A stretch of 41,690 nt of DNA. It comes from a virus (taxonomy: Duplodnaviria; Caudoviricetes). Under the pieces are notes generated by a model. The model searched no databases and was not told the origin of the DNA. It saw only the letters and a list, made by a program, of their open reading frames with translations. Each line of letters opens with the position of its first letter. The stretch's first letter is position 1. Below, one piece after another: positions 676 through 9,437 of the stretch. Where the stretch lies: positions 1 to 41,690 of the IMG/VR virus record IMGVR_UViG_3300047550_000958; one strand, 5' to 3'. Made by a program: the position numbers and the translations under genes.

Positions 676-3600
676 CTACCTTAGCTTCTTCTCTATCATT
701 CGCTGCGCGTCATCCACAGAACCGACTACGCCAGCCAAGGAACCATCTGGGGAGTATACCCTGAACTTGCTCTTGGTCTTTCCCGGAAGGATGCGGTAGC
801 CCGACATTGAGTAGGCACCGGGGATGGATGGGTCTGGGACCAGTGCGGGCATGTACCGTATATCCGCGCTGCTCTGCTGAAACCGTTGGCTGAGAGGGAT
901 GATGTTGCCCGCATCGTCGCGGGTAATGGGGTCGGCGGATTTGATCTGGGATGGGTCGAATACGCTCATCTGAGCAGGGCTGTCTCCAAACTTTGTTTTC
1001 AATGTTCCGGATGCTATCACAGCATCAAACCCTGCATCTTTCGCCTTCTGTATGGTTTCCGCATCCGTTGCTCCGGGGAACATTTCAAACAACTTGTTTG
1101 CGGCATCAGTGGCATCTTTTCCAATGATTGGATTTTTTGCCATTGCATACGCTTTCAAAACCTTGTTTCCACCAATCCGTTTTGCGTATGAAGTCGCCGA
1201 ACCTTCATCAAACGCCACATAAATGCCGGGACCAAAGTTGCCAATACGGCTTGGCTTGAACTCCGTGAACTCTGCGTTGGTTCCATGATACACCGGCCCC
1301 ACGTTATACCCCGCCGCTTTCGCCGCCTGATCCACGAGTTCCTGTGCCTTAGCCGTATCCCCAGCTTCCACCGCTGATAGATACTCGGCATCCGAAGGCA
1401 TGAAGCGAGGCCCAGACGGTTGCGCCTGAGCCTCACCCGAGGTCACATCCCCCGCTTGTCGAACCGGCCCGAGTGCTTGCCTGCCTTCTTCTCGGCCTTG
1501 CGTGCGGTCGAGAGCGCGATTGCGATTGCCTGCTTCTGCGGTTTGCCCGACTTCATTTCGCGCCGGATATTGCTGCTGATCGTTTTCTGGCTGTAGCCTT
1601 GTTTGAGTGGCATTTGCTTTCCTTTGTGCTTGTTCTGCGGAGTCATAGATCCCGAGGAGCTTTCCTTCGGGACCATACAACCGAAACTTGTTGCCGCTGG
1701 TTAGGATCGTGAACCCTGCACCAGACTTCCACGCCTGCTCCTCGCCCACGGATCCCGCAGGCATGAAGCGATCCTTCATCTTCTTGTAGGCGCTCTCAGA
1801 GAACTTCGCCCTGAAGTCAGACGGATCCATCTGACCCATGCGGTCCAACCGGAAGCTGTGAATGAACTCGGAGCCACCCTTTTCGGCGGAGTTCATGAAG
1901 TTCCCGAAGAACTCAGCCTTGTCCGGACCAAACAGATTGCGGCTAGGAATGGCGTTTTCCTTGCGGTCGAGGTTGGTCAGGTAGGCGTTCAGTTCACCAA
2001 GGAACTCACCAACGTTGCCCCACAGGCCACCAACGGAGCCGTCAGGACGGATAGATCTTTGCAGAGATTTCCTAACCTGCGTCAGGTCGATTGCTCGGAC
2101 GTAGGAGTTGTTCTCCTTGGACAACAGCAGGTTATACGGCAGGACCTCGCGGAACGTCACTCGCCTCGATGCATACTTGGTGCGCCAACGCTTAGAGGTC
2201 GGATCCTGAACCTTCTCGGTGGCCGGGTAGTACTCAACAAACAGCGACCGTCCTTCGTTGATGCTGCGATTGGTCATCTCCAGCCGCTGCTTCATCTGAG
2301 ACGACACCGAAGAACCCTTGATGGCGTCCAACTGTTCCGGGCTGAGATCGCCGACCACCTCGCCGTTGATGTCGATCTTGGCTCCGGGCAGTCCGTCGAT
2401 GATCTGCTTGAGCGCCGTGACGTCTCGGGTCTCACGCTGCAACAGCTCGCCGTTGGTCAGCAGCCGCACCTCTCCGGTAGGCAAACGCTCCGCGAAGCCA
2501 CCACGGACCGCGTAATCAGCAGCCACTGGGTCCAGAATGGCCTTCTGGTCGATCTTGAAGGACTTCTGATAGTCCGCGTTCAGCAGGGCCTCGTCGATGT
2601 TCTCACGAGCCTTCAGAAGCCTTCGCAGGGCAGCGTCTAGTGCTGGGGAGGCGTTCTTGATCTCTGGGAACAGCACCGAGTCGGTAGGCGTGATTCCGAA
2701 CGTCCGCTCGATGAGTTGACCGATCTTTGACCCAACACGGCTGGCCTCCTGAAGAAGCAGCATGTCTGTGAAGTTCTGTCGCGTAGATCCAAACCCGCGC
2801 AGGAATGCGTCTGGCTTCTGAGACGACAGGATCCGTCCAACCTGCTCCGCTGCCAGCTCCTCGCCAACGTAAACCGCACGGTCCGATGCCGTCGGGTTGT
2901 CCGCAATGACCTTGGTCCGGGTCTCCTCCGGAAGCATCATCACGTACTGATTAAACAGCTCCTCGACCTTGGCTGGAGTATATTGCCCCTCGCTGACCAG
3001 CCTCACCGTCCCGTCTGGGTTGGGCACATAGGCTCCGGTCAGAATCTCGACGAAACCCGTTACGTCGCCTTGGAACTGCTTGGTCTTGGCCAGTGCGTGC
3101 AGCAGCTCGTGACCCAGCGTGTAGATCGGGCTGTCACCCTTCACCTTGGGCATCGCGTCGACGTTGATGAGGATGCGTGGAGTGGCCGCATTCTCGTCAG
3201 GGACAACGCCACGAGCAGTGACACCAGCACGCTTCTTGAACTCGTCACCGCGCAGGATCTCGACACCAATGTCTCCGCGAGTGCCTTTGATGAGGCTCTC
3301 CAGATCCATCAGGTTGGCCGCAGTGTCAGTTCCGAACCGCTCTTGGACAGACTGGTAGGCCGCCTTCTTCTCCGGTGCCAGCGTGTCAACGTAGGTGGTC
3401 AGGTCGTTGAGTCGTGCAGCCTTGGCCTCACTTCCAGTCAGTGTTTGCAGACCACGAGCGCCAAGAGAACCAAGAGCACCAGCCACACCTCCGGATCCAA
3501 TTCCGGAAGCAGCTCCTTCCTCTCCTCCAGATAGATAGCCAAGAGCACCACCAACAGCAGCGCCTTCCAGCGATCCAGCAGTTCCTGCAAGTGCAGTACG

Positions 3601-4605
3601 TAGTGCAGCATCTCCACCATAACGTCCAATGGTTCCGATGATCCTTTGCCGCATGTTGGCCTCTGGGATGGCACCAACAGCCTCCAAGGCACCGATACGG
3701 GTCGGCGCACGGCCCATCTGAGCACCGGCAGCTTCTAATGCTCTTCCAAAGTCTGTGGCCGTCTCGGCAATCAATGGGACAGCACCAACAAACCCGACAG
3801 CAGGACCAGCTCCAGTTGCAGCTAGAACCCCAGAAGTAGCCGCTGCACCCCGGAGAGCTTCCGGAGAAACACCGACCGCCTCGGTTACGAACTGAGAAGC
3901 TGCCTTGGAAGCCGCCTCGATTGGCCTAGACACGGCTTGGATACCTTTGCCAGTAGCTCTAACAGCCTTCCCAACAGCCTTTGCCGCAAGCGTCTCTGCA
4001 CCCAACATCTGACCAATACCCGGCATGACCATAGTTGGGTCAGCGATCATTGCCACGGCTTGGACAAAGTCGGGGTTCGTTAGCTCCTTTGGAAGGTACG
4101 ACAGCTCACCGCGCTCATATTTGGCCAAGTCGTTATTGAATCGACGAGCCTCGATGAATTGCTTTCTCTGGGAATCGACAGTTCCGCTGCCCGCCATCAG
4201 ATCCTTCAGCGCAAATAACGCACTGTTTGGATCCTGAGATTGAGCAAGCATCCCATAGAACTGGTTAAATCCTTGACCAATTCCCTCGATGTAGTTTGCA
4301 GGGTTAAGCGCAGCACCTTCAACCACGCCAGCAGCAGCCCCACGGCCAGCAAGCCCAAGCATGTAATCTACGCCTTGAGCTATAGAATCAACGAAATCAA
4401 CCTGCTTTGTCTTGGCGTAATCCTTGTAAAGTTTGAACTCGTCCGTGGTTGGCTCGTAGGTTGGATCAGCCGCAAGCCTTTCCGCAATCTCGGCACCGTT
4501 GACTGGGAACTGCTTTTCGATCTGTAGCCTAGCCTCCTCCAGAGGCACGTCATCAGCCACCTCGACTGTTCCACGACCTCCGGGGATCTCGACTGTGTAG
4601 GGCAT
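676..4605 (-). CDS. Large internal virion (ejection) protein, polyvalent: zincin-like metallopeptidase motif plus ART-PolyVal-like ADP-ribosyltransferase domain (allele A)
   Basis: 1309 aa, last of the ejection-gene block. Gly/Ala-rich membrane-like N-half; HELLH (3097-3111) with downstream EELAAE; YHGT...FGPGIY...FDPSQIKS module at 853-1401. Confidence 0.8.
1443..1613 (-). CDS. Nested +1-frame small basic phage protein (56 aa, [34 protein letters not shown]...)
   Basis: Matches, from recall, the widespread MPLKKGxSQKTISxNI...GKPQKQAxAIAL small phage family. Preceded by AAAGGAAAGCAA-ATG (SD-like). The host frame here reads as a low-complexity R/G/E/Q linker. Confidence 0.75.
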
Positions 4606-6389
4606 TACTGAACGGGTTTGATTTCTTTTCCACGAGTCAATGTGTACCGACCAGAAGAGGGACCAGATTCGGTAACTCCGGAAGAACCCGGCACCCTTCT
4701 TCCAGTGATCTGCTCGTAGACTGACGTTCTGCGTTCAATCTCAGCCAACTGGTTTTCAATTGCTGCCTTGGCAACAGAAGGACGCACGCCGACTCCAAGC
4801 GGTATGAGGTATTTCTTTGCAGCAGCAACTTCGCCTTCACGCGCAACTGACCCCGGATCAACAATCTTCGCATACATGATGGCAACCTTGTATGGGATTG
4901 AATCGAGAAGGACAGACCCCTTGGGATCAAGGAACTCGGATGTCCCGTATTTGTCGATGGCGTTGTTAAGCTCGGCGAGAGATGTCCTATACTCAGACAC
5001 GTTGGACATGAACGCCTTGTCTGCTTCTGTAAGAGGCTGGTTGGGTTGTTTGACAGGTGGAATGATGTCCACCTTCCCGTCAGCTCTAATCACTGTGATG
5101 CCTTCAGGAGTTACAGAAGACTCGACCTGTATTGGCCTCTTTGTTCCTGCCATCTCCAGCACCTTGTCAATGGAAGCAAAAGCCTCCGGAGCCATGCCCT
5201 TGGTGCGAGCAAAGTCTACAAGTTGCCTCCTCAAATCTTCGTAAGGCACCTGCTGCTGTGACTGCACTGTCCGTGTCCTAGTTTCAAAAGCAGGAGCAAC
5301 TGGTGCAGCTTTAGCCTGCTGACTAACAGCCGCAGGTTTCCCAACAGTTTCAATCTGTGCTCTGAGCTGTTGAGCCTTTGCTCGATCTTCTGATGCCTTT
5401 TGACGAAGTTGAGATGTGACTGAAAAAACCTCCTCTGACTGCCTTCTAAATTGTTCTTGAGCAACTTCCTGCTCCAAAGGAGTTGGAGTCCTTGTTTGTC
5501 CCTGTAGTGATGGAATCCTGATTCCAGTTCCAGAACCGGCCATCGAAGCGCCTAGCGCCGTCTGTGAATACGGAGCCTGAGTGGCATTGAGCGCAGCCTG
5601 TTGTTGCTTAAGCTGGTTTTCACGAGTTATTGCCTCACGCTCATTAAGGACTGCAAGATTTTCAAGAGAATCAGCTTCTTGCTTGAGGGCCAACCTTTGC
5701 TTTGCAACCTCCTCAATTGTTGGTTGAGGTGCTTGCGCCTTAGTTGTTGCTGGAACCTGTCCAACAGGAGGAGGAACAGGAACTTGATAAGCCTCTTGGA
5801 CATCGACTCTGCGCGTGGTCGGAAGCCCCATGGCTTGTTTCGTCAGTTCGTCGATTTGACCCCTTGTAGCAGCTTCGCGACGAGCCTTATCAAGTTCGAT
5901 TTGACCAAGCTCACGTTTCATCTCCTGCTCCCCGCGCTGCTGGTACTGCTGGAGCACCATTGCCATGTCGCCGATTGCGGCCTTCTTCTTGGCCACGCTC
6001 ATGTCCCCGAACTTCTCTCCTAGACCAACCATCCGGTTGAGCATGGAGCGATCCGTCTCAGCCTTCTTGCTGAACCTCTGAAGGTCAGCCTCGGTGACGC
6101 CTTGAGGCAACTGCCCCGTCTCGTAGTAGTTCTGGAGAGCCTGATAGCTAGGATCACTAGCCAGAGCCTGCTGCGCCATGCCACTCAACGTCTCAAAGGT
6201 CTGCGTAGCGGCCTCGTTTTCGGCCTTGTTTGTCTGATAGCGCTGGATCGCCTGACCAATCCCAGCGCCAAGCTGTGCAATGCCAGCGGCTAGATACCGT
6301 CCCGGTGCCGTGGCCGTCTCCATGTAGCCGGGTGGGAGCACCGGCTGACGCGTTCCAGTGTATTGCGTGGAGTATCCGTATTCGGCCAT
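4605..6389 (-). CDS. Internal virion / DNA-transfer (ejection) protein
   Basis: 594 aa, Q/A/E-rich coiled coil; N-terminal GIAQLGAGIGQAI; C-terminal KIVDPGSVAREGE motif typical of podophage ejection proteins; TAATG coupling to the next gene. Confidence 0.7.
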   Translation of the reverse strand: MAEYGYSTQYTGTRQPVLPPGYMETATAPGRYLAAGIAQLGAGIGQAIQRYQTNKAENEAATQTFETLSGMAQQALASDPSYQALQNYYETGQLPQGVTEADLQRFSKKAETDRSMLNRMVGLGEKFGDMSVAKKKAAIGDMAMVLQQYQQRGEQEMKRELGQIELDKARREAATRGQIDELTKQAMGLPTTRRVDVQEAYQVPVPPPVGQVPATTKAQAPQPTIEEVAKQRLALKQEADSLENLAVLNEREAITRENQLKQQQAALNATQAPYSQTALGASMAGSGTGIRIPSLQGQTRTPTPLEQEVAQEQFRRQSEEVFSVTSQLRQKASEDRAKAQQLRAQIETVGKPAAVSQQAKAAPVAPAFETRTRTVQSQQQVPYEDLRRQLVDFARTKGMAPEAFASIDKVLEMAGTKRPIQVESSVTPEGITVIRADGKVDIIPPVKQPNQPLTEADKAFMSNVSEYRTSLAELNNAIDKYGTSEFLDPKGSVLLDSIPYKVAIMYAKIVDPGSVAREGEVAAAKKYLIPLGVGVRPSVAKAAIENQLAEIERRTSVYEQITGRRVPGSSGVTESGPSSGRYTLTRGKEIKPVQ

Positions 6390-9037: not shown

Positions 9038-9437
9038 AAAGTTTCTCTCCCATCTTGTAGATGTCCAAGGCTTGTCGGAATCTTCTTATCTTACCATGAC
9101 GAACTCCAAAAGCTGGCAAAGTTGCCGCATCGGATCGTCTGGTGAACATTTCCGCGAATGCCGCCATGATCGCAGTAGGCGTATCGCCTGCGATCTGATC
9201 CCAGAACCAATAGCGACCATGTTTGGTTGGTTCCTGCCATTGGAATGCCTCCACCTGCATCTCCTCCGTAGGCCAACCGATCACGATAGCCTTAATTTTT
9301 CCGTGGTCGTCCACGGCGGCGACGAGCTGGTTCCTCTCGATCTGCCACATCACATAGTCCTCCAGAGCTTCCATGGTCCACCCCTTGAAGCTGTTGGGGA
9401 GCTTCTGCAATAGGTACTGGACTAGTTTCTGAAGCAT
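9027..9437 (-). CDS. Virion-assembly protein, possibly GNAT-like (T7 gp13 / P22 gp14 position)
   Basis: 136 aa with alpha/beta pattern, lying between the fibre and ejection genes; call is mainly syntenic. Confidence 0.45.
   Translation of the reverse strand: MLQKLVQYLLQKLPNSFKGWTMEALEDYVMWQIERNQLVAAVDDHGKIKAIVIGWPTEEMQVEAFQWQEPTKHGRYWFWDQIAGDTPTAIMAAFAEMFTRRSDAATLPAFGVRHGKIRRFRQALDIYKMGEKLYGN

Follow-up and report, generated by a model that had tools for sequence, protein, structure and literature searches.

In phage lambda, the embedded spanin genes Rz and Rz1 present a small functional gene that lies wholly inside another gene in the +1 frame. The locus reported here is similar in that a small phage gene is found inside another one in a shifted frame. 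The two frames of Rz/Rz1 encode interacting parts of one machine, whereas in our locus signs of amino-acid selection on the outer frame are lacking where the two overlap, and many free-standing homologues of the inner gene exist.

The ShiLan domain is an HNH endonuclease lying out of frame in a mycobacteriophage DNA methylase gene; the cited part of that paper proposes that the insert is read in the host frame as a tolerated loop (Arsenault et al. 2025, PMC11855218). Both there and here a gene is present from start to stop out of frame in a phage gene, and the host frame is open. As far as the cited part goes, ShiLan is a selfish homing endonuclease of patchy occurrence; in contrast, our nested gene lacks nuclease features and occurs in almost every close relative, and its family is found beside head genes. 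A homing insertion of the ShiLan type was considered and rejected: the nested product has no match to HNH or other nuclease families in PHROG and Pfam, and its 56 aa are modelled as two helices.

The enclosing gene is similar to those of polyvalent proteins, which are described, in the part of the source cited here, as large late-region proteins with HExxH, ART-PolyVal and swappable domains (Iyer et al. 2017, PMC5512222). It contains HExxH and ART-PolyVal, and PBECR5 and other swappable domains occur in its relatives. The words “overlap” and “linker” have no occurrence in the main text of that paper, which therefore gives no account of nested genes. For overlapping genes, Pavesi 2021 (PMC8227390) applies a phylogenetic criterion to separate the ancestral frame from the de novo one and, in the cited portion, places the de novo frame at +1 in 75% of overlaps, more so in internal ones. 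The present overlap likewise combines one ancestral and one de novo frame; unlike the majority in that portion of the study, its ancestral member is the internal +1 gene, and its new one the enclosing frame. Our literature search, in which few subscription papers were covered, found no description of this nested gene or of genes nested in the linkers of polyvalent proteins.

We believe that the observation is best read as follows: judging from sequence comparison, this is very probably a real gene of an old family that lies out of frame in a virion gene and is likely translated and likely packed into the head, the long frame being probably a passive linker.

The window, i.e., the whole stretch of DNA analysed, is a complete-looking virus record of 41,690 bases. 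Genes for terminase, scaffold and SU10-type major capsid protein and tail genes lie on its minus strand upstream of the 1309-aa gene and co-oriented with it. The features of this gene are collected in Table 1.

Table 1. Features of the long virion gene and of the gene nested in it (positions in the window)
Feature	Positions	Strand	Remarks
Polyvalent protein gene, host of the nested gene	676..4605	-	1309 aa, near the end of the virion module
HELLH (HExxH metallopeptidase-like motif)	3097..3111	-	invariant in 11 aligned relatives
T1, internal copy of a repeat domain of ~45 aa	1615..1746	-	ends right at the nested ATG
Shine-Dalgarno-like AAAGGA	1620..1625	-	6 nt ahead of the nested ATG
Linker, long-frame reading of the nested gene	1444..1614	-	57 aa, residues 998-1054
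Nested gene, PHROG 2423	1443..1613	-	56 aa, family match and predicted two-helix hairpin
RFMP junction motif with which the cassette behind the nested gene begins	1396..1407	-	
ART-PolyVal domain (PF18760)	931..1293	-	63.4 bits, cut-off 31.2; sole cassette in the window
T2, C-terminal copy of the T1 repeat domain	679..825	-	identity to T1 43% across the aligned part

The nested ORF runs from ATG (1613-1611) to TGA (1445-1443), and the whole of it lies within 4605..676 in the +1 frame, one base 3' of the long frame. The preliminary description, which left the strand unstated, reported a 56-aa +1-frame ORF wholly inside the 1309-aa one, AAAGGA shortly before its ATG (at 1625-1620), and a main frame that stays open and is rich in R, G, E and Q; all three observations hold. 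Among the 115 loci that contain the whole nested ORF (window included), AGGA precedes the ATG in 92 and an A-rich upstream stretch does so in the other 23. The linker, which ends in RQAGDV, consists of R, G, E and Q by 49%, and the long frame is open through the nested gene in 113 of the 115 loci. The nested product is basic (15 K+R vs 3 D+E), and its AlphaFold model is a hairpin of helices 9-21 and 26-44 (mean pLDDT 84). No further copy of the small gene is found elsewhere in the genome. A search of 1200-1900 against Rfam gave zero matches, and a scan of 600-2600 found no sigma-70 promoter or terminator. No RNA data set was listed as containing the sequence; two runs marked as possible RNA are flagged as probable DNA and yield nothing but short contigs. 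The protein collection includes the long protein of the window's contig and not the exact small protein; gene callers miss the nested gene.

When loci were fetched by the core of the long protein, the whole nested ORF was found in 68 of 70 viral loci (one is cut by the contig end and one lacks the ORF) and in 46 of 52 metagenome loci (the other six end before it), with the reservation that some contigs are present in both collections and the loci are related, so the counts overstate independence. The ORF is therefore considered to be beyond chance. As regards the host, three contigs from metagenome-assembled genomes are labelled differently, as Rubrivivax, Gammaproteobacteria and Verrucomicrobiota.

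A sequencing or assembly error that fused separate genes, a danger named in the preliminary description, would find support in two identical loci (L182 and L185) with a long-frame stop. Against it stand exact unitigs of depth 211 (covering 748-4700) and 171 (covering 931-2400) with zero differences or gaps relative to the window, although the runs that gave them may be the window's source sample; moreover, independent loci are intact, the long frame is open in nearly all of them, and the linker is present in 116 of the 120 long homologues listed, the four without it sharing other domains only. The exact unitigs and the open long frame in relatives rule such a fusion out, and we assign it practically no weight.

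All 115 loci begin the nested ORF with ATG, although the overlying codon of the long frame differs between them (GAT in 82, TAT in 23, AAT in 10); the change xAT to xAC, silent in the long frame, never occurs there. The stop codon is TAA in 52 loci, TGA in 32 and TAG in 31. Lengths of 56, 52, 49 and 45 aa are observed, so all indels preserve both frames; the 45-aa variants result from in-frame deletions in L166-L168. Stops in the +1 frame among relatives, which would have spoken against the gene, are found in none of the 115 loci.

These data bear on the possibility of a programmed frameshift where T1 ends, which would furnish a short virion protein with the basic peptide as a tag for the head. 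Larger proteins fused to this peptide (including L080) agree with it, as do the 23 loci without AGGA and the +1 frame, which in the window is open for 21 codons upstream of the nested ATG. However, a frameshift does not account for the invariant ATG and the missing silent change; M1-P2 of the nested product is invariant as in the free N-termini, and the fusions seen carry the peptide N-terminally. We regard a frameshift as quite improbable.

Over the first 38 codons (60 haplotypes), the small frame has a pairwise pN/pS of 0.20, whereas that of the long frame is 2.89; in the T1 domain immediately upstream, the long-frame value is 0.36. The changes were reconstructed by parsimony on a tree of 89 distinct haplotypes, with 5 loci dropped for other deletions or a missing anchor. 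In total, 373 changes in 38 codons were obtained, 245 of them at third positions of the small frame and none creating a small-frame stop; those silent solely in the small frame number 240, vs 39 solely in the long frame. With the small frame conserved and the long frame drifting, constraint lies on the small gene, and all that is required of the linker is to stay open. The linker is a sequence that drifts yet remains free of stops. The claim of a dual-coding segment is thus supported, both frames being open and purifying selection acting on the nested one. The direction implied by “overprinted” is reversed: on the sequence evidence, the nested frame is the old one, and the linker its new off-frame reading. 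A de novo origin of the nested frame failed the test of distribution, the nested family comprising 1325 protein clusters and the linker being present in 19 of the 150 long-family representatives.

Nested copies avoid stops in the long frame and so preserve it: the synonymous T that creates a long-frame stop is found at 0 of 553 risk sites there vs 171 of 611 in free copies, a contrast weakened because nested copies are richer in GC (0.62 vs 0.46) and seldom have T in third position, safe sites included (27 of 1097). At L182:1406-1564 and L185:7805-7963, which are identical there, the virion gene of one lineage is split by the long-frame stop that falls within the nested gene, and the small gene is intact.

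The nested ORF could also be a recently captured relic whose translation has been lost, and the deletions in L166-L168 would be natural for a relic. The excess of changes at small-frame third positions without a single stop is not; nor is the retention of the ORF on two long-protein cores just 21-24% identical, or in a genome that has no other copy. A relic is highly improbable in our opinion.

The preliminary description suggested a resemblance of the product to a widespread small basic phage family. The resemblance is real. Residues 1-45 match positions 1-45 of 52 of the PHROG 2423 profile at E 3e-20; 1325 protein clusters match the small protein at E<=0.001 (among 1350 candidates), and 459 GenBank phage records have a match to it. 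The match to Pfam DUF6496 (PF20106) is weak, 18.5 bits being below the gathering cut-off of 24, and DUF6496 members make up 11% of a look-alike protein cluster. The product is similar to members of PHROG 2423 (e.g., in the gp20 region of PB1; weakly DUF6496) in sequence, length, basic charge and predicted helical hairpin, and differs from the free-standing members in being nested. Free-standing homologues, whose absence would have been damaging, are plentiful: among the best 80 viral loci, 74 are free-standing and 6 nested.

The family is mostly free-standing and often adjoins head genes. Among 41 of the 140 ORFs neighbouring free copies, hand-picked and biased to long ones, there are 20 with head or packaging PHROGs, 3 with lysis, 1 with connector and 1 with DNA metabolism PHROGs, 1 of a polyvalent-type family and 15 without a match. 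In Pseudomonas phage PB1, the family member gp20 lies between head morphogenesis and protease genes; in MW202867, the small-family gene directly follows the coat gene. The small peptide also has a weaker match to the start of PHROG 3778, a head maturation (prohead) protease family. It is found inside larger proteins as well: at the N-terminus of a 184-aa ORF (L080:5001-5555), in a prohead protease and in a Nudix-domain protein. These occurrences are as expected of a portable head-targeting tag. No match to the small protein was found by sequence search of the PDB or, for its model, by Foldseek against the PDB at E<=0.001, and the BFVD matches of the model are uncharacterised family members and fusions. 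Since no solved structure matches, the role of the small protein rests on gene context.

The long protein consists of a core of ~950 aa, the T1 repeat, the nested gene, variable cassettes and the C-terminal T2. The E downstream of HExxH is invariant, together with the motif, in the 11 aligned relatives; no Pfam MPTase match was obtained. As in the polyvalent class, ART-PolyVal scores above its cut-off and the gene is located among late virion genes. The earlier label “ejection protein” is inferred from the size of the product and from its gene's position, last in the virion module; PHROG, Pfam and NCBIfam searches of the 1309-aa product gave no ejection-protein match.

Cassettes of relatives include PBECR5 and DUF7178 above the cut-off, and the long frame extends ~230-1430 codons past the nested gene in them. 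The ART-PolyVal cassette (931-1293) is 98%, 98% and 76% identical to that of P0111, P0112 and P0122, which are otherwise unrelated proteins of ~1700 aa; such identity may be taken to indicate that different host proteins have recently exchanged cassettes. The motif R[FY]MP occurs at every domain junction on the minus strand (1759-1770, 1396-1407 and, as RYMP, 847-858), with variants such as NFQP in relatives. An RFMP-like motif is found at most 12 codons after the nested stop in 82 of the 115 loci. Its use as an internal start codon is ruled out, relatives having NWQP, NFQP, NFSP and similar. It is tempting to guess that the motif might be a target of the HExxH peptidase in the protein itself.

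The origin of the nesting was considered on a core tree of 77 rows, the long family being sampled by the above 150 representatives. The linker carriers fall into two distant clades, each among relatives without the linker; therefore, the module has moved between cores. In L132, L210, L211 and P0133, T1 and cassettes, and mostly T2 too, are present without the nested gene. L211 also has a stretch rich in R, G, Q and E ahead of the terminal domain (~9100-9240).

According to the preliminary description, an ancestral gene end and its downstream neighbour were absorbed by read-through. In this scenario, a shorter virion gene ended at T1 with a coupled small gene downstream, cassettes joined behind, and the stops were lost. 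The required arrangement exists: in a related lineage, the small gene is free-standing right after the stop of the same virion gene in 15 of 19 loci, and likewise in L042. The gaps are 1-31 nt, the register is +1 in 11 of 16, and there are 0-5 stops in the overlapping frame. The short proteins P0216, P0205 and P0228 end in a T1-type domain, and nested T1 groups with these three and with the internal T1 of linker-less sisters (SH-aLRT 94) in a quick T-domain tree of about 50 columns. In L238, a further cassette comes after a terminal-type domain and precedes the small gene.

Direct descent is nevertheless disfavoured by the trees. In the small-gene tree, also of about 50 columns, the free copies of the related lineage make up a clade distinct from the nested copies (SH-aLRT 97). 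Their identity to nested copies is 65% vs 74% for other free copies, the latter having been picked for likeness to the query; those closest to the nested copies include some behind coat genes. Nested T1 is 37-43% identical to the internal T1 of the sisters and 30-35% to the terminal domain of the lineage. The one short-form locus fetched, L242 (from alignment A6), has a different gene downstream, and a DNA search for the short form P0157 found no locus. The lineage with the free downstream copy is thus unsupported as the direct ancestor, and we hold absorption by read-through to be possible, at rather less than even chances.

The separate clade of the lineage's free copies and the grouping of nested T1 with the internal T1 of relatives that lack the gene somewhat favour an insertion, i.e., recombination that dropped the gene in frame between T1 and the cassettes; we consider this slightly better than an even bet. 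It is also favoured by the direct joining of T1 to cassettes in L132, L210, L211 and P0133, and by an overlapping frame that is open already in 6 of the 74 free copies. In L222-L224 and L227, the gene after the free small gene starts with ATGAAGAGGTTCAT, which shares AGGTTCAT with the nested junction TAAGGTTCATG. A crossover at the shared AGGTTCAT is possible, albeit speculative.

We presume the following. Recombination would have inserted the gene in frame at the junction of T1 and the swappable effector cassettes. The small protein would be made from its own ATG by internal initiation on the late mRNA, and in the long frame this DNA would be read as a linker that is free of stops and probably passive. 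The small protein probably acts inside the head, binding capsid, scaffold or DNA; this role is suggested by the gene neighbours and by peptide fusions to prohead proteases. Cassettes may nowadays be exchanged with the conserved 170-nt block as the left crossover point, a proposal prompted by related contigs in four runs, which diverge at 1443-1445.

The preliminary description further suggested that the disordered linkers of polyvalent proteins are generally off-frame readings of hidden genes. A scan of 119 long ORFs for nested ATG ORFs of at least 30 aa yielded 1014 such ORFs in 180 clusters, 48 of which have at least 3 distinct members and were tested. Nested-frame pN/pS is the lower one in 3 of the 48: the focal gene, a cluster made up of families A and B, and the cluster of family C; the signature is absent in the other 45. 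The suggestion is therefore borne out in part: genes are hidden in some linkers, and most nested ORFs are by-products.

Family A (L106:4191-4349, L111:9597, L164:4666, L218:4001) is a nested +1 gene of 52-116 aa at a cassette end; in its 14 loci, AAGGAG precedes the ATG, and pN/pS is 0.28 vs 0.99. Its short forms have a stop just ahead of the next R[FY]MP motif. A search with family A returned 8 loci, none outside this phage family among those checked. Families B (L110:9687-9887; 14 loci, 0.18 vs 1.32) and C (L103:9792-10001; 3 loci, 0.40 vs 0.96) are candidate nested +1 genes. All three are located at cassette edges. Candidate D (L093:9699), which looks like B, was rejected, the long frame being the conserved one (1.12 vs 0.29). 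PHROG searches with families A-D gave nothing better than E 0.06.

Concerning the meaning of the observation, we believe that it presents a clean, phylogeny-dated case in which the newly made sequence is in the enclosing gene rather than in the nested one. What looks like a low-complexity linker in a large virion protein can be the off-frame reading of another gene, and the frame-specific selection test can be applied to any set of polyvalent proteins to examine the linker hypothesis. Cultured phages such as PB1 carry free-standing members, which makes the function of the family open to bench testing. Relative to the virion gene, the small gene is found free behind it, nested, absent or re-split from it by a stop, and at the cassette edges of the family there are up to three more hidden genes. 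It is a tentative thought, short of an even chance, that polyvalent proteins grow by swallowing neighbour genes, cassettes bringing along small +1-translated genes whose off-frame readings become “disordered linkers”. If true, the family would offer a natural series for the emergence of new protein sequence from old genes and for the anchoring of cassette shuffling.
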